Below, in pieces: positions 3,187 to 31,579 of a stretch of 32,000 nucleotides of DNA. Both the position numbers and the translations under genes were made by a program. Source of the stretch: Candidatus Saccharimonadota bacterium (GTDB lineage Bacteria > Patescibacteriota > Saccharimonadia > Saccharimonadales > UBA4665); NCBI GenBank assembly GCA_016699935.1, contig CP064992.1:210001-242000 (forward strand). The letters are read 5' to 3'. The notes beneath the pieces are model-generated. The model worked only from the letters and a program-made list of their open reading frames with translations. It was not told where the DNA came from and did not search any database. The stretch's first letter is position 1, and the number at the start of each line of letters is the position of its first letter.

Positions 3187-3750
3187 ATGGTATTATTTGC
3201 TTTAATGAGCAACCTGGAGACTGGTGTAAATCTTTTCGCCATGATGAACGGTGGTAAAACCACGGTTGGTATGTTGGTTGCAGAAATATGTGGATTACCA
3301 TTTGTTGACACGGACGATGTAATAACCGAGGAATATGGTCTAGCTCCTGGCGAAATTATAAAATCTGAGGGTTCAGATAGATTTATGATTGTCCAACGTC
3401 AGATACTCACTGCCAGGCAAAGAACTAAACCGGAAGTGTGGGCAACAGGCGGCGCAGTGGCTAGAGACTCCGAGCTCGTACGACACTTGGGGGCATCGGG
3501 TGTAGGCGTTTTTCTCTTTGTTAGTCCAGATATCCTTGAGCACAGAACTTCTGAAGAAGATATTGCTAAATTGGCAAATCCTAACGGTTTAAGCTTCAGG
3601 GATTTATATTTAATTGAACGAATGCCATTCTACAAAGCGGCTGCCGATATAGTGATTACAGTAGATGATCCTGCCGAAACTCCAGAAAAAACAGCTCAGA
3701 GAGTCATTGACTCAGTGTTTAACGGTATCTTAAGCTCTTCACCTAAGTAG
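3187..3750 (+). CDS. aroK: Shikimate kinase
   Basis: NLFAMMNGGKTTVGMLVAEICGLPFVDTDDVI (P-loop plus the shikimate kinase N-terminal pattern) and ATGGAV. An alternative start is ATG 3205. Confidence 0.75.
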   Translation: MVLFALMSNLETGVNLFAMMNGGKTTVGMLVAEICGLPFVDTDDVITEEYGLAPGEIIKSEGSDRFMIVQRQILTARQRTKPEVWATGGAVARDSELVRHLGASGVGVFLFVSPDILEHRTSEEDIAKLANPNGLSFRDLYLIERMPFYKAAADIVITVDDPAETPEKTAQRVIDSVFNGILSSSPK

Positions 3751-19527: not shown

Positions 19528-19692
19528 ACCACCTCCTTAGACTGTTTATGCTTATAAAGTAAGTATACGCAAACTGCTCTGCTTTTCGAAATTTTCGGTC
19601 AGAGATGGTTCACGTGCTTCGCACCAGCCACAAAACTATTGAACATGATTGCGGTGAAAACACCAGAGAGAAATCCGGCATCCCAGGTGAAA

Positions 19693-20398
19693 CTAGCTTA
19701 TCGCCGTACCGAAAGCGCGGCCGATGGCGTAAGTTACTGCCATGGCTATAAGCCCGCCTATGAGTATGCGGCGCACGGCGGCGGCCTTGTCGGCACCACC
19801 AAACTTCGCACTGTAAAAGCCAGTGGCAAACAGCCCGAACACCACCGCAACGAGCGTGATGGGTATGCGAGTTGCATCTGGTGACAGCACTGCTGCTAAG
19901 CAACGGTACAAGCGCCCCCAACCCAAATGAAAAGAACGATGCCACGCCAGCGGTCATAGGGTTGGTCAGGTCGGCTTCGTCGAGCTTGAGCTCGGCCTCA
20001 AGGTGCGCCTTCAGCGGATCGCCCTTCGTCAGCTCCCGCGCAAATTGCTCGGCTGTTTTTCGCGACACGCCTTTCTTTTCATAAAACTCGGCAAGGTCTG
20101 CTAGCTGGCCTTCCGGGTCTTTTCTCAGCAGTTCTTTCTCTTGGGCTATAAATGCGCGCTCGGTGTCGCGCTGTGTACTTACAGAAACATACTCGCCTAG
20201 CGCCATACTGATAGCTCCGGCGATTAACCCCGCCAGTCCGGCCGTAAAGATGGCACCCTTGTTATTCGTGGCACCAGCCACGCCGAATATCAAGCCGGCT
20301 GTACTGACCACACCGTCATTGGCACCCAGCACCGCGGCGCGCAGACCGTTGAGCTTATCGTTCTGGGATAGTACTAGCTTTTTCTTAAATTCGTCCAT
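19693..20398 (-). pseudogene. VIT1/CCC1-family iron/manganese transporter; one frameshift ~19905 as sequenced
   Basis: LRAAVLGANDGVVSTAGLIFGVAGA, MALGEYVSVSTQRD and a cytosolic helical insert. The last TMs continue in the frame of ORF 19693..19926 (ITLVAVVFGLFATG..IGGLIAMAVTYAIG). Confidence 0.75.
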
Positions 20399-20884: not shown

Positions 20885-21029
20885 CAGTGGTAGGCATGGG
20901 GGCGCTGGCCGTACCAGTATTCGCTGGTTGTTGCGGTTGTTTCGGCCTGTTTTTTAGTGTCGAAAGCTATCTTGTCACTGCATGCTAATTTAACTTCATA
21001 TGTCTCTTGCATATCTGTCCCGCTTCACT

Positions 21030-22737
21030 TCATTCATCATTCTTGATTCTGAATTCTGAATTCTCAATTCTCAATTCCTCATTCTGCATTCCCCGTTCCT
21101 CATTCCTCCCCAGAGTATGCTTAGCGCATTCCACCAAAGCAGCTTCGTGTGCAGCCAAATGAATCGTTCCAGTTTGGTCGATGCCAGGCGGTTTGGAAGG
21201 GTGAGTGCTGGCCAAAACACGCCCGCCATGTGGCAATGGAAACGTTGCGGGTTTACGCGAAAAGTTGCCGGCAACAAAGACGTGCTGATTGTCTAGCCTG
21301 CGACCAAAAGCAAAGACCTGCTGGTCAGCTTCACCGCTGACCGACTCGTAATCGCCATGTCGAAGTATATCAAGGCCGCTTCTCAGGGCGAGCAACTGGC
21401 GATACAGGGCCAAATACGAATCATCGTCGCCTTGTTCGGCCGCTACATTGCACTCATCTGCTCCCTCGGCTATCGGCAACCAAGGTTTTACCGTGGTAAA
21501 ACCAGCTGTTTTAGTTCCGTCCCACTGCATCGGCGTACGCTCTGGGTCACGACCCTCGTTTAGCTCGGGTTTACGCAGCTGTACCGGATCTTGCGCCTCC
21601 TCGGGGGGGATAAATCCATTTGTCATGCCAAGCTCGTCACCGTAGTAAATAACCGGTAAACCTGGCAGACAAAGTTGGGTAAATGCCACGACGCGAGCTT
21701 GAGCTTTACCAGTGCGAGAAGCCAAACGATGCTGATCGTGATTGCCAAAACAATAGACCGGTGTGTGTTCTTCTTGGTTCAAAAAGCCCTGAAATTCAGT
21801 CACAAAATTGCGGTAGGCATCGGCCGTAAATGGTAGACCTATCCCTTCGAAGTTAAAAGGCATACTTACGCGCGGGTTCACGCCGTAAAAACCTAGGTAC
21901 TGATCGCGGGTGGTGTAGGCTTCGTCTGGGTAATCTTCGAAAATCATGATGCGGTTTTCGTATTCTGCCACTACATCTGTCAACTCACGCAAATAGTCAA
22001 ACAAATGTGGCCCAAAACGGCTGCAAACGTGTAGATACCCCCAGTATGGATCATCCGGTTTTTGGTCGGTGTATTTGGGTTTATGGGTCATCATGCAAGT
22101 CCGGATCTTTCGAAATCCAGCGAACGGCATCAGCCCTCATACCATCAACACCTAGTTCGAACCAAAACCGCAAAACATTTTGCATTTCACGGCGCAAGGC
22201 TGGATTATCCCAATTCAGATCGGGCTGTTCTTTCAGAAACGTATGCAGATAGTACTGCCCAGTCGTGTCATCCCACTCCCAGGCCGAACCACCGAATATA
22301 CTCAGCCAATTGTTGGGTGGCGAGCCATCGGGCTTGGCATCGCGCCAAACATAATAATCTCGCATCGGATTATCTGGCGACTGTCTTGCGGCCAAAAACC
22401 ACGGGTGCTCACTAGATGAATGGTTAGGCACAAAATCTATCATGACTTTTATGTCTCTAGAATGTGCGACCTCTAGCAACTCTTTGAAATCATCGAGCGA
22501 ACCAAATAGCGGGTCGATATCGCAGTAGTCGCTGACATCGTAGCCAAAGTCCGCCATGGGGCTTGGGAAAAACGGCGAAAACCACACCGCATCCACACCC
22601 AGTGAATCGACTTCGTTCTTCAAATACGGCAGCCTCTGAATGATTCCCTTGAGGTCACCTACCCCATCGCCATTGCTATCCTGAAAACTCCGCGGATATA
22701 TCTGATAGATAGCATTGACGTCTTTCCAGGTTTTCAT
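21030..22737 (-). pseudogene. GH13 alpha-glucosidase (oligo-1,6-glucosidase/trehalose-6-P hydrolase-like); one frameshift ~22080-22130 as sequenced
   Basis: IYQIYPRSFQDSNGDGVGDLKGI, DFVPNHSS, GVDGMRADAV, MIFEDY, FGNHDQHR and YYGDELGM appear in GH13 order. ORFs 22081..22737 and 21030..22130 overlap. The last ~26 codons are encoded by a heptamer array. Confidence 0.8.
21032..21108. repeat. Tandem array of 11 degenerate heptamers
   Basis: Plus-strand units: attcatc attcttg attctga attctga attctca attctca attcctc attctgc attcccc gttcctc attcctc. Confidence 0.85.
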
Positions 22738-23195: not shown

Positions 23196-24293
23196 GTGAC
23201 AAAAGCAGCAAAACTACTTCTCGCCAGCCAGCTTGTGCTGGCAGTTGCACTCGTAATTTGTACCATTATATTGCCAAAATTTTTGTTCAGCACGGATCAG
23301 GGCGGTGTGAGTAACTACGGGGTAAATGCGGAAACACTCTGGCCGTTTAGTATCTCATATACATGTTTGGGCGATTGATGCCATACCAGAGGCCGTCCCA
23401 CCTATGACCGGCGGTCACAGCCCCACTTCACCAGTTTTATATTCGACGTCTATAATGCCTACGGACTCAGAGGCATGGCTTAAGAAGGCAATGTCAGTTA
23501 CGAAGAAGAATACGTGTTGTTTGGTGCGGCACAAAAAAGCCAAATGAACGTCTTGTCTACAAAAACCTGAGTCGTTACTGCCGATATCAACCACCTGCAC
23601 GACCTCGCCGAGCCGAAGTGGCTGGGACATGACACCACGCTTCAATCGCAAGGCTCTTCATTATCTTCTAGCTTATTACTTTGCTATATAAATACGGCTG
23701 ACTTGCCCGAGCAGAACGGCTCCTTGGCAACGAACAAGCGGCTAAAAATGGCTTGAATCAGCTGAAAGCCGAAAAAACCATGAATGACACATGTGGGATC
23801 AAAGCGGTCTGTACTATGACTACGACTACAAGAAACAGAGGCGCGGCAATATCAGTAGCCTTGCGGCGTATTACCCCATGTGGGCTGGAATGGTAAACGA
23901 AAACGAGCCGCTACTCTGGTGAAGTCTCTGCGGCGCTTGAAAAATAAGGGCGGGCTGGCAACCACCGACGCACTTCCACTCGGTCAGTTCGTACCAGGAA
24001 GCGTGCCGGTGCAATGGGCGTTCCCCAACGGCTGGGCACCGCTACATTTCATCGTGGTCGAAGGCTTGCTCAAATACGGTACCGCGAAGATGCCGAACGA
24101 ATCGCCACGAAATTAGCCGTATAAATCTTGACTGGTTCAATGAACACGGCGTGTTTCTGGAAAATACAATGAGATTATTAGCCCTGACAAACCGCTCCAA
24201 AAAGGTGTCTACCCAAGTCAAACTGGGTTCGGCTGGACCAATGCTGTTTTTGAACGGTTCTGCAAAGAGTTCATCGATACAAAGCCGGTCTAA
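23196..24293 (+). pseudogene. Trehalase-family (GH37-like) glycosidase with N-terminal TM/signal; at least 6 frameshifts/stops as sequenced
   Basis: Conserved blocks appear in order across frames: RSQPHF..FIFDVY; SYEEEYVLF; HLHDLAE|SGWDMTPRF; LLYKY..LARAERLLGNEQAAK; HMWDQSGLYYDYDYKK; GGLATT; QWAFPNGWAPLHFIVVEGLLKYG (trehalase signature QWD.PNGWAP); TGFGWTNAVFERF. Stop at 24291-24293. Confidence 0.6.
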
Positions 24294-24337: not shown

Positions 24338-24886
24338 CTAGTAGCTACTGTTTTTGCGTTGCCACCACCCAGTCGACGGGGTTGCTTGGATTATCTTGGT
24401 TGTACAGTACCTGGTGCAGGATACCATGACTGCTTTTGCCTGGTCTAGCTCATACCGATACGCGAAATACAGTGAGGTGAGGCGCGTCCGGCCCGCTGTT
24501 TGTGCGGGGTTGATTATCACGCCTGTTTGTGGAAACAACCCTCGACGTTCACCGTACATAACCCGCGGGTCGAGCATAATCATCATGGCTGCCGTGCGCT
24601 GACATTTATCATCGTGATCTGCGTGTGCGTGCGGTTCGCCGTCATCGTGCTGATGGTACCCGCTAAGTGCCAAGATTCGTCGGCGTAGTCGTCTTCCAGG
24701 CTAAGTGGCTGATGAGTAGCAGCAAGATGCTCCTGTCAGGCGGTCTTTACCAGCTTCGATATTTGTCAGAAATTTTCTTCGATTTCCACTGCGCCACTTC
24801 AGCAACGCTTTCACGGTGCGTCTCACGAAGCAGGCGAGTTTCTTGCCGAGTAAACTGTATGGTGCCGAAGTATCTTTCTGTGCCAT
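24338..24886 (-). pseudogene. XRE-type HTH protein with His/Asp-rich region; several frameshifts, product uncertain
   Basis: Across frames the sequence reads SLLGKKLA | LRETHRESVAEVA | FLTNIEAGKDR (HTH_XRE-like order), then GYHQHDDGEPHAHADHDDK..RTAAMMIMLDPRVM. The ORF pieces are 24701..24886, 24747..24962 and 24338..24673. Confidence 0.3.
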
Positions 24887-24949: not shown

Positions 24950-25962
24950 TTGTGCTCAACATTACAGAACATGTTTCGCTGGCTAGCTACCCACGATGCG
25001 GCTTGGTGGTGTGCGGACTATCTCACCGAGATTCATTCTCGTGATGACCTGAAAGAGGCGATTTCCTGGGCAGCGAAAACAGCTCCAATACTCGCGATAG
25101 GTGGCGGCGGTAATATCGTCTGGCGGGATGAGGGTTTCAGGCTCATTATGATAAACCGGATTTTGGCTACGAGATTACGTCTCCTCGACGGCCACTTTAT
25201 AACCAGTTGGTGCCGGCGAAATCTGGAGGACACTGTGGTCGGCAGGAACAGTTGCTGCTGGGCTTACCGGCGTGGCGCTCGATGCTCAGCATACCTGGCA
25301 CTGTCGGTTGCAACCCCAGTACAAAACGTCAGCTGCCTGCGGCCAGGACATCGCTCAGACGCTCACTGGCGTGAGGTATTTGACCGCACAACGGGGCAGC
25401 TGACTACTGTGCCAACAGAAGCCTGCGGGTTCTCGTACCGCACAGCAAGTTTCAGGACGAATACCGCGGACGCTTTTTCATTACCGCCATTACGCTGCAT
25501 CTTGCGGCCGGCACCTTTCCGGCCCTACTACAGCGCCCGTGAAAAATACCTCGCCGAACACCCAGTCGACGGGCCGGTCACTCCGCGAGTCGTTCGCGAT
25601 GCCGTCATCGCCATCAGGAATGCCAAGCTTCCCGACCCAACAGTTATCGCCAACACTGGATCATTTTGCAAACCCCATCGTAGACAGCAAAACGTTCATG
25701 CGGCTTATGGTACCTACCACTATGCCGAATTAGCGAAGACGGTGGTGCTCAAAATCCCGCCGCCTGGCTCATCGAACAGGCTGGCTATAAAGACGTACAC
25801 GATAATAAAACCAGGATGGCCACCTGGCCAACTCAGCACTCGTGTCGTCAGCGAACATGCCGCAAATCCACCGCCGACCTGCTAAAATTCCGCGATGAAA
25901 TCACCCAGGCGGTCCAATCTCTTCGGCATTACCTCGTCCAAGAACCCGAACTACTGCCTTGA
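24950..25962 (+). pseudogene. murB: UDP-N-acetylenolpyruvoylglucosamine reductase; at least 6 frameshifts as sequenced
   Basis: Across frames the blocks follow MurB order: LNITEHVSLASY|TTMRLGGVADYLTEI; PILAIGGGGNIVWRDEGF; SIPGTVG|ATPVQNVS; VFDRTTGQLTTVPTEACGFSYRT; AIRNAKLPDPTVIANTGSF; AAWLIEQAGYKD; ADLLKFRDEITQAV. Stop at 25960-25962. Confidence 0.75.
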
Positions 25963-29845: not shown

Positions 29846-29921
29846 AGCCTGATTGTATCACCATACCCAGCACTTACCTCAGAAACCATCCGGCCAATAG
29901 GCCAGTGGGCTTTGCAGTGCG

Positions 29922-31313
29922 CTAGCACTTGCAGGGGATGCAAGGGCAGGTTCCACCGCATTTGCATGTTTTACTGGGGTGAGATTCGTCGCATTTGCAA
30001 TCTTTGCAATCGCCTTTGCAATCTCGACAGCTTTTGCTATCACTTGGTAACGGGAACTGGCGAGAAAGGCGATAACTTCATCGTGTATAGCAGCAAGCTT
30101 TTTCTCGTCTTCACGAGCGTCGATGGCTTGTTTCATCCACTCGGCTATTTTCACCATATCTTTTCCTTCAGACCACGAGTGGTGATAGCAGGCGTGCTGA
30201 GTCGGATGCCACTCGGACGGAACGGTGGCAACGTATCATTGGGTACTGAATTTTTATTCAGGTTCAGACCAACTTTGTCGAGCGCTTTTCGGCAACGCCA
30301 CCGTCTATGCCGAAGCTCTGGTTGACATCAGCCAATATAAGGTGATTGCTCGTGCCGCCAGCTACCAATATAAAGCCGCGTTTTTTTAGTTCTTCGGCCA
30401 GTACGGACGCATTCTTCACGACTTGCTTGGCGTATGTTTTGAATTCCGGGCGAAGTGCCTCGCCAAAAGCGACAGCCTTGGCGGCAATCGTGTGCATGTG
30501 TGGCCCACCCTGGGTGCCAGGGAAAATGGCTCGGTCGATAAGTGTCGGGATGTTCTGAATGGTTTTCTCTGGCGCCTTGAGAGGTGTCGAAACCGTGCCC
30601 TTGCTGAGGATCAAGCCACCGCGCGGACCGCGCAATGTTTTGTGCGTGGTGGTCGTAATGACATGAAAGCCGTAGTCAAATGGGTTTTTGGCCTCACCTG
30701 CCACGATTAGCCCAGCGATGTGCGCCATATCTGCCATTAGTAGGCAATCTGGACCAACTTCTTTTGCGATGGCGGCAAATTTGGCATAATCCAGCTCGCG
30801 TGGATAAGCGCTGAAGCCAGCCAGAATAATTTTTGGCTTGTGTTTGAGGGCTAAGGCGCGTAGCTCTTCGTAATCTATTTCACCAGTAGTAATGTCTTTC
30901 ACTTTGTAGCCGACAAAGTTGTAGATGTGGGCCGAGCGCGTCATCGGGTTGCCGTGACTAAGGTGTCCGCCGTGGCCAAGATCCATCCCAAGCACGGTGT
31001 CGCCAGGCTCAAGCCACGCGTAGTAGACAGCTTCGTTTGCAGGGACACCAGAGTGGGGCTGGACATTGGCATGGTCGGCTTTGAACAATTTTTTAGCGCG
31101 GTCAATGGCGAGCTGTTCTAGCGGGTCGGTGAAGTCTTGGCCGCCATAGTAGCGCTTGCCCGGGTAGCCTTCGCTGTATTTATTTGTAAAAATACTCCCA
31201 TTGGCTTCTAGCACGTCAGCAGAAACATAGTTTTCACTGGGGATGAGTTCCAGCCCTTCGTGCTCACGCTTATCTTCGGAGGCAATTAGATCAGCTACTT
31301 GTGTATCTACCAT
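29922..31313 (-). pseudogene. glyA: Serine hydroxymethyltransferase with a ~38-aa Cys-rich (metallothionein-like) C-terminal extension; 3 single-base frameshifts as sequenced
   Basis: [22 protein letters not shown] and [14 protein letters not shown] appear in ORF 30264..31313. The sequence continues [42 protein letters not shown] | [21 protein letters not shown] | SRQFPLPSDSKSCRDCKGDCKDCKCDESHPSKTCKCGGTCPCIPCKC, with a stop at 29922-29924. The breaks fall at gaaaag, gaaaag and ttt. Confidence 0.8.
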
Positions 31314-31489: not shown

Positions 31490-31556
31490 TTGAAAATTTT
31501 TTGAAAATTGAAAATTGTGAATTGTGAATTGTGAATTGTGGATTGTGGATTGTGGA
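31490..31556. repeat. Tandem heptamer array with stepwise unit change
   Basis: ttgaaaa (tttt) ttgaaaa ttgaaaa ttgtgaa ttgtgaa ttgtgaa ttgtgga ttgtgga ttgtgga, with eight contiguous units at 31501-31556. Confidence 0.85.
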
Positions 31557-31579
31557 TTACCTCCACCATATACCATGCA

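Follow-up and report, generated by a model that had tools for sequence, protein, structure and literature searches.

The window analyzed in this work is a stretch of 32,000 nucleotides (nt) from a Candidatus Saccharimonadota bacterium (assembly GCA_016699935.1, contig CP064992.1, positions 210,001 to 242,000 of the forward strand). On its minus strand it carries a glyA gene, encoding serine hydroxymethyltransferase (SHMT), that, once three frame breaks are corrected, continues in frame beyond the canonical end of the enzyme into a Cys-rich tail. The coding sequence, tail and stop codon included, occupies positions 29922-31313, with the start at 31313 and a TAG stop at 29924-29922. As assembled, it contains three 1-base deletions, so that an uninterrupted SHMT reading frame is not found and the open reading frame (ORF) ends after 349 codons. 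In a three-frame translation of the minus strand, SHMT sequence runs from frame 0 to frame 2, then to frame 1 and back to frame 0, and each switch is the effect of one missing base. Restoration of the three bases yields a protein of 464 amino acids whose C-terminal sequence, ...AFSRQFPLPSDSKSCRDCKGDCKDCKCDESHPSKTCKCGGTCPCIPCKC (also written out as ...IHDEVIAFSRQFPLPSDSKSCRDCKGDCKDCKCDESHPSKTCKCGGTCPCIPCKC), is followed by the TAG. An extension of this kind, running past the FPLP motif up to the TAG, had been proposed in a sequence-only reading of the window, and the corrected sequence agrees with it, as no stop is found after FPLP. The same TGC-TAG end is present in four related loci (L001, L086, L151 and L154).

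Residues 1-426 of the corrected protein (30039-31313, minus strand) form a canonical SHMT core that ends in FPLPSD. Pfam family PF00464 matches this core with 510.5 bits (cut-off 27; model positions 4-399 of 399) and NCBIfam model NF000586 with 548.5 bits (cut-off 335; model positions 1-403 of 404, covering residues 3-423), and both scores place it among the SHMTs. The lysine motif for pyridoxal 5'-phosphate (PLP) is intact in the core and invariant in the alignment of homologs; its Lys is presumably the Schiff-base lysine, as established for the SHMTs of E. coli and B. stearothermophilus. Canonical bacterial GlyA proteins (1DFO, 1KKJ, 3PGY) share the same full-length SHMT fold, and the window protein differs from them by the Cys-rich extension past residues ~423-426. 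The alignment with the solved bacterial SHMTs stops at residue ~423 in every case; these proteins terminate a few residues further on at most, and none of them has a Cys-rich extension. Because the SHMT models and the solved enzymes stop at this point, the tail is an appendage on a complete SHMT fold.

The tail itself consists of 38 codons (SKSCRDCKGDCKDCKCDESHPSKTCKCGGTCPCIPCKC; 29925-30038, minus strand) and contains 11 Cys (29%), one His and no aromatic residue, compared with a single Cys in the 426 residues of the core. The Cys residues make four CxC and three CxxC motifs. Ten of their codons are TGC and the first one is TGT; hence, the eleven Cys counted in the sequence-only reading are all present, in the 38 residues after PSD, and only its description of eleven TGC codons needs to be amended. 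Part of the tail is built from three copies of the 9-nt unit GATTGCAAA, which encodes D-C-K (29994-30023, minus strand; copies at 30023-30015, 30011-30003 and 30002-29994). This repeat region is the length-variable part of the tail, with in-frame indels among relatives that include a 15-nt in-frame indel relative to L001. The conserved 3' block D-CKC-[DG]E-x-x-PSK-x-CKCG-x-x-C-x-C-x-x-CKC spans 29925-30002 on the same strand, and its synonymous divergence is low compared with that of the core. In the Cys frame, no ATG, GTG or TTG follows the upstream TGA before the tail is reached, and no separate ORF ends at 29922; the two other frames across the tail give an Ala-rich ORF or stops. The repeats, the missing start codon and the nature of the other frames had all been described from the sequence alone, and translation bears them out.

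Stop-free segments of 40 codons, of which the 32 kb contain 15,162 over all six frames, have 1.0 Cys on average; nine or more Cys are found in six segments and eleven or more in just one, which is this tail. A chance origin of the Cys content of the tail is excluded. Aside from the glyA tails and a duplicate in L151-L153 that is described below, no other metallothionein-like Cys-rich coding stretch was found in the window and in 648 kb of related Saccharibacteria loci; the remaining Cys-rich matches of that scan do not have the CxC/CKC pattern.

Homologs were sought by comparing the corrected protein with 5.8 billion protein clusters, and the best 120 matches, together with 80 GTDB representatives, are the source of all the counts of distribution given here. 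The matches are SHMTs of Saccharibacteria. Orthologs had been pointed out in the sequence-only reading as a place to look for Cys-rich extensions, and 30 of the 120 best homologs do carry one directly after FPLPSD, always in uninterrupted ORFs of 437-484 amino acids and always in Saccharibacteria. These 30 proteins contain 25 distinct tails, 11-58 residues long and with 4-15 Cys. The rest of the 120 end 0-5 residues past FPLPSD, with the exception of P0044, which has a 13-residue tail devoid of Cys. Tailed ORFs come from independent NCBI, JGI, ENA and Logan assemblies, including short-read contigs made with SPAdes or MEGAHIT and contigs longer than 1 Mb; P0009 was found on 12 contigs and P0004 on 8. 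At several tailed loci the next gene, which encodes a NUDIX hydrolase, begins 3-5 nt past the tail stop. The nearest intact relative, P0001 (locus L001, contig JBGAWL010000009 of GCA_044227625.1), has 94% protein identity to the corrected window SHMT. In the source databases these proteins are labeled as glycine or serine hydroxymethyltransferase only, because compositional-bias filters hide the tails from standard profile searches.

Altogether, the comparison of sequences shows that the tail is a real, heritable in-frame extension of SHMT. An independent small ORF, programmed frameshifting and stop read-through were considered as sources of the tail and rejected, as relatives encode it in one uninterrupted frame. 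Three tblastn matches that seemed to pass the SHMT stop (L006, L014 and L024) were found to be spurious, since their translation shows no Cys-rich sequence beyond it.

Relation of the tail to metallothioneins

When the 25 tails are pooled, they contain 26.6% Cys, 17.3% Lys, 9% Gly, 9% Asp, 7.6% each of Thr and Ser and ~0.6% aromatic residues, and CxC and CxxC motifs are abundant. Their alignment reveals a duplicated unit, CKCGE-x-...-K-x-CKCGE-x-C-x-C. In operational terms, a metallothionein has ~15-35% Cys arranged in CxC, CxxC or CC motifs and few or no aromatic residues, a description that suits the window tail and the 25 tails. A metallothionein is also an independent polypeptide below 10 kDa, and in this respect the tail departs from the definition: it is a C-terminal extension of a 464-residue enzyme and lacks a start codon of its own. 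A further hallmark of metallothioneins, metal-thiolate clusters that hold several Zn, Cd or Cu ions in one polypeptide, is predicted for the tail.

Six metallothionein families of Pfam (PF01439, PF02068, PF12749, PF02067, PF05522 and PF02069) were compared with the tails, and none of the six reached its gathering score (best scores of 12.9-15 bits versus 23-32). PF02068 gave an E value of 0.032 (15 bits, cut-off 31.8) and PF01439 (Metallothio_2) one of 0.22 (12.9 bits, cut-off 23) over model positions 65-81, which belong to the C-terminal domain. The window tail matched PF12749 with E = 9.9, and PF02069 (SmtA) did not match the tails even at E <= 10. All the Pfam families that match the tails, weakly in every case, are metallothionein families; no zinc-finger or Fe-S model matches. 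A search of PDB sequences with the tail found no relative and returned zinc-finger matches at chance level (Muscleblind, E = 6.6). Additional searches say little about the distribution of the tail, because compositional-bias filtering suppresses such sequences and known tailed SHMTs are missed: a single tail shared no 5-mer word with any database protein, a profile of 15 tails retrieved nothing at E <= 0.001 from 1.84 billion representatives, and with 17 tails in the profile a single marginal match was obtained (P0121, E = 1.4), while the known tailed SHMTs were not recovered. The term “metallothionein-like”, used in the sequence-only reading, is appropriate for composition and motifs and does not extend to membership of a Pfam metallothionein family, for which all scores are below threshold. 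Judging from these comparisons, the tail seems to be metallothionein-like in its chemistry and not a demonstrable member of any known metallothionein family.

Plant metallothioneins of types 1 and 2 (PF01439) share with the tail a CKCGxxCxCxxCxC-like motif, the use of CxC, CxxC and CKC, richness in Lys, Gly, Ser, Asp and Thr, and scarcity of aromatic and hydrophobic residues. In contrast with them, the tail scores below threshold, is located at the end of a 50-kDa PLP enzyme, belongs to a bacterium of the Patescibacteria or candidate phyla radiation (CPR), and has a putative metal-binding capacity. Convergence is as likely as homology to account for the likeness. The count of 11 Cys in the window tail is also that of the alpha domain of mammalian metallothionein, which holds four metal ions. 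The bacterial metallothioneins SmtA/BmtA (PF02069), Pseudomonas PmtA and mycobacterial MymT are also prokaryotic Cys-rich polypeptides, and they sequester metal; however, they are encoded by stand-alone genes, and the tail does not have conserved His or aromatic residues. SmtA contains 9 Cys and 2 His and adopts a zinc-finger-like fold with aromatic residues.

Tails that bind metals are known on larger proteins. Domain B of the H. pylori GroES protein (HspA), a unique C-terminal extension with 8 His and 4 Cys, binds two Ni per monomer, and its deletion lowers both the cellular Ni content and Ni tolerance (PMC5116745). By analogy, domain B may be considered the best documented counterpart of the SHMT tail: both are lineage-restricted C-terminal extensions, rich in metal ligands, on a housekeeping protein whose orthologs elsewhere lack them. 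Domain B, on an abundant carrier, stores or buffers metal apart from the core role of that protein, as is proposed for the SHMT tail. The SHMT tail fits this type in that it is found in a narrow lineage, is absent from solved SHMTs and is dispensable for the core. The two extensions differ, however, in that domain B is His-rich, Ni-specific, has its Cys in disulfides and is carried by a chaperone, whereas the SHMT tail is Cys-based and carried by a PLP enzyme, and there is no sequence similarity between them. SlyD and HypB have His/Cys-rich C-terminal tails similar in kind to domain B. With Cys as the ligand, the SHMT tail would be expected to prefer Zn, Cd or Cu(I). Another Cys-rich C-terminal extension on a larger protein, the di-Cys extension of the plant P1B-ATPase HMA4, confers high-affinity Zn binding, in the nanomolar range (PMC6255694). 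It is, however, a regulatory or sensor tail of a eukaryotic membrane transporter, and it uses CC dipeptides instead of the CxC/CKC of the SHMT tail.

A search of full-text literature on SHMT, Saccharibacteria and Patescibacteria in combination with metallothionein, Cys-rich or metal-binding found no description of such a tail, in keeping with the sequence-only reading, which had considered a metal or redox tail on SHMT to be undescribed. The parts are known (SHMT, metallothionein-like peptides and metal-binding tails), while the combination, the lineage and the wider family of modules presented below appear undescribed.

The KxCKCGExCxC module and the proposed function

JGI metagenome contigs were scanned for DNA encoding K-x-C-K-C-G-E-x-C-x-C, and the surrounding ORFs were translated and checked with Pfam. 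The scan yielded 62 loci, a few of which are probable chance matches, and included another SHMT tail from Saccharibacteria (L103). Two GrpE proteins possess an N-terminal Cys-rich module of 40-50 residues (CKCGENCNCEPECHCGEECNC...; L092, 10649-11278, and L119, 280-846 on the minus strand; E = 1e-47 and 1e-50), and in one of them the module is followed by a His-rich stretch. An Fe/Mn superoxide dismutase (SOD) of L145 (3-617; Ga0315288_10000015, 227 kb; Sod_Fe_C E = 1.4e-24) has a 40-residue C-terminal Cys tail, KCQCKNCQCEDGRCGKKCKCGEDCKCKKDKCQCDCQCG, and its source is a low-GC, probably uncultivated bacterium. A SIMPL/DUF541 protein (L090) carries the module at its N-terminus, and an LTXXQ (CpxP/Spy-like) protein (L147) has it C-terminally. 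Two families of signal-peptide proteins from high-GC bacteria, ~95-190 residues in length, contain 1-3 modules (L089/L096, ~30 similar loci, P0121), and stand-alone module peptides of 20-60 residues were detected as well (L097, L099, L102, L112, L126 and L128). The variety of these contexts indicates that KxCKCGExCxC is a portable module and not specific to SHMT. A broader proposal, which we advance tentatively, is that the SHMT tail might be one case of an unrecognized, promiscuous prokaryotic metallothionein module that occurs, in uncultivated bacteria, on the termini of unrelated proteins of housekeeping and stress response, in secreted proteins and as stand-alone peptides.

With regard to the window gene, we consider it fairly likely that glyA encodes a normal SHMT that continues in frame into a metallothionein-type tail able to bind and buffer soft metals (Zn, Cu, Cd). 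In such a protein, the 8-15 thiolates of the tail (11 in this case) would wrap Zn(II), Cd(II) or Cu(I) ions in thiolate clusters, and SHMT, a cytosolic enzyme that is stable and presumably abundant, would have a second role as a buffer, sink or reservoir of metal; oxidant scavenging might be a secondary role of the tail. A genome of ~1 Mb would then have no need for a separate metallothionein gene. The tail module would work independently of SHMT catalysis, and not as a specific regulator, because the module is portable, the length of the tail is variable, and the tail is dispensable with the core unchanged.

To our knowledge, bacterial metallothioneins are rare and poorly catalogued, and we know of essentially no description of how ultra-small Saccharibacteria and other CPR cells handle metals and oxidants. 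If the above proposal is correct, a conserved, fast-evolving metallothionein-like tail on an enzyme of one-carbon metabolism would represent a new route to metal buffering, and the tailed SHMT would be a natural example of an enzyme with a metal-binding tag. The modules on GrpE, SOD and other proteins suggest a wider use of the same solution: if the module is indeed promiscuous, episymbionts with minimal genomes would buffer metal by decorating abundant enzymes and not by means of a free metallothionein.

A rather unlikely alternative is that the tail is a redox device, either a sacrificial oxidant sink or a disulfide switch that tunes the activity or the oligomerization of SHMT, instead of a metal store. 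Eleven closely spaced thiols would suit this role, the same module is found on stress-related proteins (Fe/Mn-SOD, GrpE, SIMPL), and metallothioneins are known as oxidant scavengers (PMC11237414, PMC10612145). However, the CxC/CKC spacing and the lack of a conserved pairing partner in the core, where one Cys is found in 426 residues, fit thiolate clusters better than regulatory disulfides. The wide range in length and Cys number (4-15) is also hard to square with a specific allosteric switch, and the core does not change when the tail is lost. Redox and metal roles are, in fact, compatible with each other.

A structural zinc or Fe-S domain (ribbon or knuckle) that permits a moonlighting SHMT to bind a partner protein, nucleic acid or the host-attachment machinery is quite improbable. 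CxxC pairs are indeed present, three of them in the window tail, and the weak match to Muscleblind involves a zinc-finger protein. However, the 25 tails are too variable in sequence, length and Cys number for a defined fold, they have neither a hydrophobic core nor aromatic residues, and the only Pfam families that match them, however weakly, are those of metallothioneins. An AlphaFold2 model of P0001, obtained from a shallow alignment of 32 sequences and poor overall (mean predicted local distance difference test score, pLDDT, of 58), shows no secondary structure in the tail (pLDDT 33-40). This predicted lack of structure speaks against a folded domain and would fit an apo-metallothionein, with the reservation that the whole model is poor.

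Distribution and evolution of the tail

Several observations weigh against a metal-buffering function of the SHMT tail. The functional role is drawn from composition and analogy, and neither a metallothionein gathering score nor a PDB relative supports it, as described above. The tail is patchy: the close relatives P0018, P0019 and P0024-27 are tail-less, so the tail is dispensable, and short Cys tails were found in only two (L002 and L003) of the 80 best GTDB species representatives, which comprise Saccharibacteria and other Patescibacteria. The ratio of nonsynonymous to synonymous divergence (dN/dS) of the tail is about ten-fold above that of the core, with one pair above 1. Lastly, the low synonymous divergence of the 3' block could result from nucleotide-level constraint or from recent lateral spread, and not from protein function.

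In a neighbor-joining tree of the core, tails are mostly found in one clade, which includes the window and in which the tail-less relatives named above are interspersed; P0044 has its non-Cys tail. Two more small clades are tailed, one formed by P0022, P0030, P0031 and P0038 and the other by P0035 and P0040. In the tail-less close relatives L082, L084 and L085, no tail remnant was found past the stop, which is clean, and the core of tail-less close relatives is unchanged. Because only two of the 80 GTDB representatives are tailed and the tail-less relatives have no remnant, the tail appears to be confined to a narrow lineage, and its distribution suggests that it has been repeatedly gained, lost or exchanged.

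The statistics of selection were obtained from six DNA sequences, which make 15 non-independent pairs. The dN/dS of the tail is 0.09-0.5 in 13 of the 15 pairs and 0.65 and 1.15 in the other two, compared with 0.01-0.04 in the core. All the indels between tails are multiples of three, and TGC/TGT exchanges are seen at conserved Cys columns, with Cys retained. These patterns indicate that the tail is constrained as a protein, far less tightly than the enzyme. At the level of sequence alignment, they show purifying selection on the Cys content and on the CxC/CxxC spacing of the tail, with a length and a sequence that turn over fast by in-frame gain and loss of repeats.

The 26 codons of the 3' block (29925-30002) were compared with those of L001, L086, L151, L154 and L156. 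Their synonymous divergence (pS) is 0.1-0.4 where the cores have ~0.7, and in most pairs it is below that of every one of ~400 core blocks of the same length; twofold codons differ at 8-20% in the tail block versus 37% in the core. Another peculiarity is shared by three loci of P0004 type (L151-L153) that come from independent assemblies: the last ~187 nt of glyA, including the tail and the stop, are present twice, with 93% identity, on either side of the NUDIX gene. In L151 the copies are located at 2713-2899 and 3389-3560 and show a 15-nt in-frame difference, the NUDIX gene encodes 159 amino acids, and the downstream copy lacks a start codon. The close relative L086 has the glyA-NUDIX arrangement with no second copy. 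The arrangement has the appearance of a small cassette that brought along a glyA 3' end of its own on insertion. Taken together, the low pS of the tail block and the duplication hint at lateral movement: because pS is low and the NUDIX cassette has a copy of the glyA 3' end on each side, the two having diverged, the module may spread laterally in Saccharibacteria together with that end of the gene. Constraint at the nucleotide level is an alternative explanation for the low pS. TGCA palindromes are frequent in the tail region, and the 201 nt at 29850-30050 (minus strand), which comprise the tail and the terminator, fold with a z-score of -3.8.

A separate comparison concerns L158 (P0014) and L156 (P0022), which share ~75% DNA identity over the first 1,100 nt; beyond this point they are 100% identical, up to the end of the tail and over at least 1.4 kb past the stop, including purD. 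This pair is not relied on as evidence of recombination at the 3' end, as L158 is a contig with 1.36x coverage and possibly an assembly chimera.

The same evolutionary patterns bear on a very unlikely explanation, namely that the tail is a near-neutral passenger: a translated, repeat-prone, mobile 3' sequence made of TGCAAA-type units and carried along when the 3' end of glyA recombines. A passenger would agree with the patchy distribution and its clean absences, with the 9-nt repeats and the in-frame indels, with the duplication of the tailed glyA end on both sides of the NUDIX gene in L151-L153, and with a synonymous divergence below that of any core block. However, tail classes with little sequence in common keep their Cys richness and CxC spacing, 14 of the 15 pairs have a dN/dS below 1, TGC/TGT changes retain Cys, and the same module is found in many other protein contexts. 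Neutral sequence would also gather stops and frameshifts, and all 30 tails are open up to a defined end.

Frame breaks and neighboring genes

The three frame breaks of the window glyA, all on the minus strand, are located at homopolymers. Site 1 (30286-30289) has four A where relatives have five (GCCG-AAAA-GCG in the window, GCC GAA AAA GCG in relatives), and the same difference is found at site 2 (30161-30164; AAGG-AAAA-GAT versus AAG GAA AAA GAT). Site 3 (30065-30067), which connects the core frame to the Cys-tail frame, has three T where relatives have four (GCC-TTT-CTC versus GCC TTT TCT CGC). When the window was aligned with L001 by blastn, exactly three 1-nt gaps were seen in the window, all at homopolymers that read GAAAAAG, GAAAAAG and ATTTTC in L001. 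The corrected segments between the breaks keep ~94% protein identity to P0001. Synonymous sites are saturated between the two glyA genes (pS 0.73), and the core dN/dS is 0.009; such a low value in spite of saturation indicates that strong selection acted on the glyA frame virtually up to the present.

Other genes of the window were also found in two or three frames or truncated when proteins of L001 were used as tblastn queries: the GH13 gene (~22083), murB (25441-25666), the trehalase gene (23412-24284), the helix-turn-helix (HTH) gene (24355-24886) and the end of purF (27415). The region has roughly one frame error per kb. Split genes of the same kind are seen in the assembly of L087, whose near-identical counterpart L086 is intact. 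Because other window genes are broken too and selection is not relaxed, the three breaks in glyA are most likely homopolymer under-calls of an unpolished long-read assembly and not biology. The three homopolymer corrections of the sequence-only reading are thus backed by the alignment with L001 and by the state of the other genes. That glyA is a true pseudogene, with three real frameshifts and no tailed SHMT made in this organism, is the least probable of the alternatives: the breaks do fall within ~230 nt at the 3' end, with longer homopolymers (A6, A7) intact in the first 1,000 nt, but all of them are single-base deletions at homopolymers, identity to P0001 and the core dN/dS reveal no relaxation, at least four further window genes are frame-broken, as is typical of an uncorrected long-read assembly, and the contrast between L087 and L086 has the same look. 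A genuine feature can, therefore, hide in a frame-broken gene of a noisy long-read assembly.

L001 is syntenic with the window, with genes for HTH-EPSP synthase, glyA, a small membrane protein, purD, purN, purF, murB, trehalase, GH13 and VIT1. The sequence-only reading had mentioned a VIT1 transporter and a His/Asp-rich protein in the window. The former, a VIT1-family iron/manganese transporter, is encoded at 19610-20398 on the minus strand (Pfam, 180 bits) and is also present in L001, whereas no His/Asp-rich stretch was found at the thresholds used. No connection of VIT1 with the tail was found except for the shared synteny in L001. A weak terminator-like hairpin lies 17 nt past the glyA stop (29890-29905, minus strand), and such sites are not above chance in the region. 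On the other side of the gene, where glyA and the HTH-EPSP synthase gene diverge, the intergenic region contains a heptamer array, AATTGTG x 6.6 (31513-31558, 97% matches), which could be a promoter or operator region of variable repeat length. A second array, made of degenerate tandem units of 7, 14 and 21 nt (CTTCATT/ATTCCTC), is located at 21028-21108, at the 3' end of the GH13 alpha-amylase gene, and corresponds to the “GH13 heptamer tail” named in the sequence-only reading.

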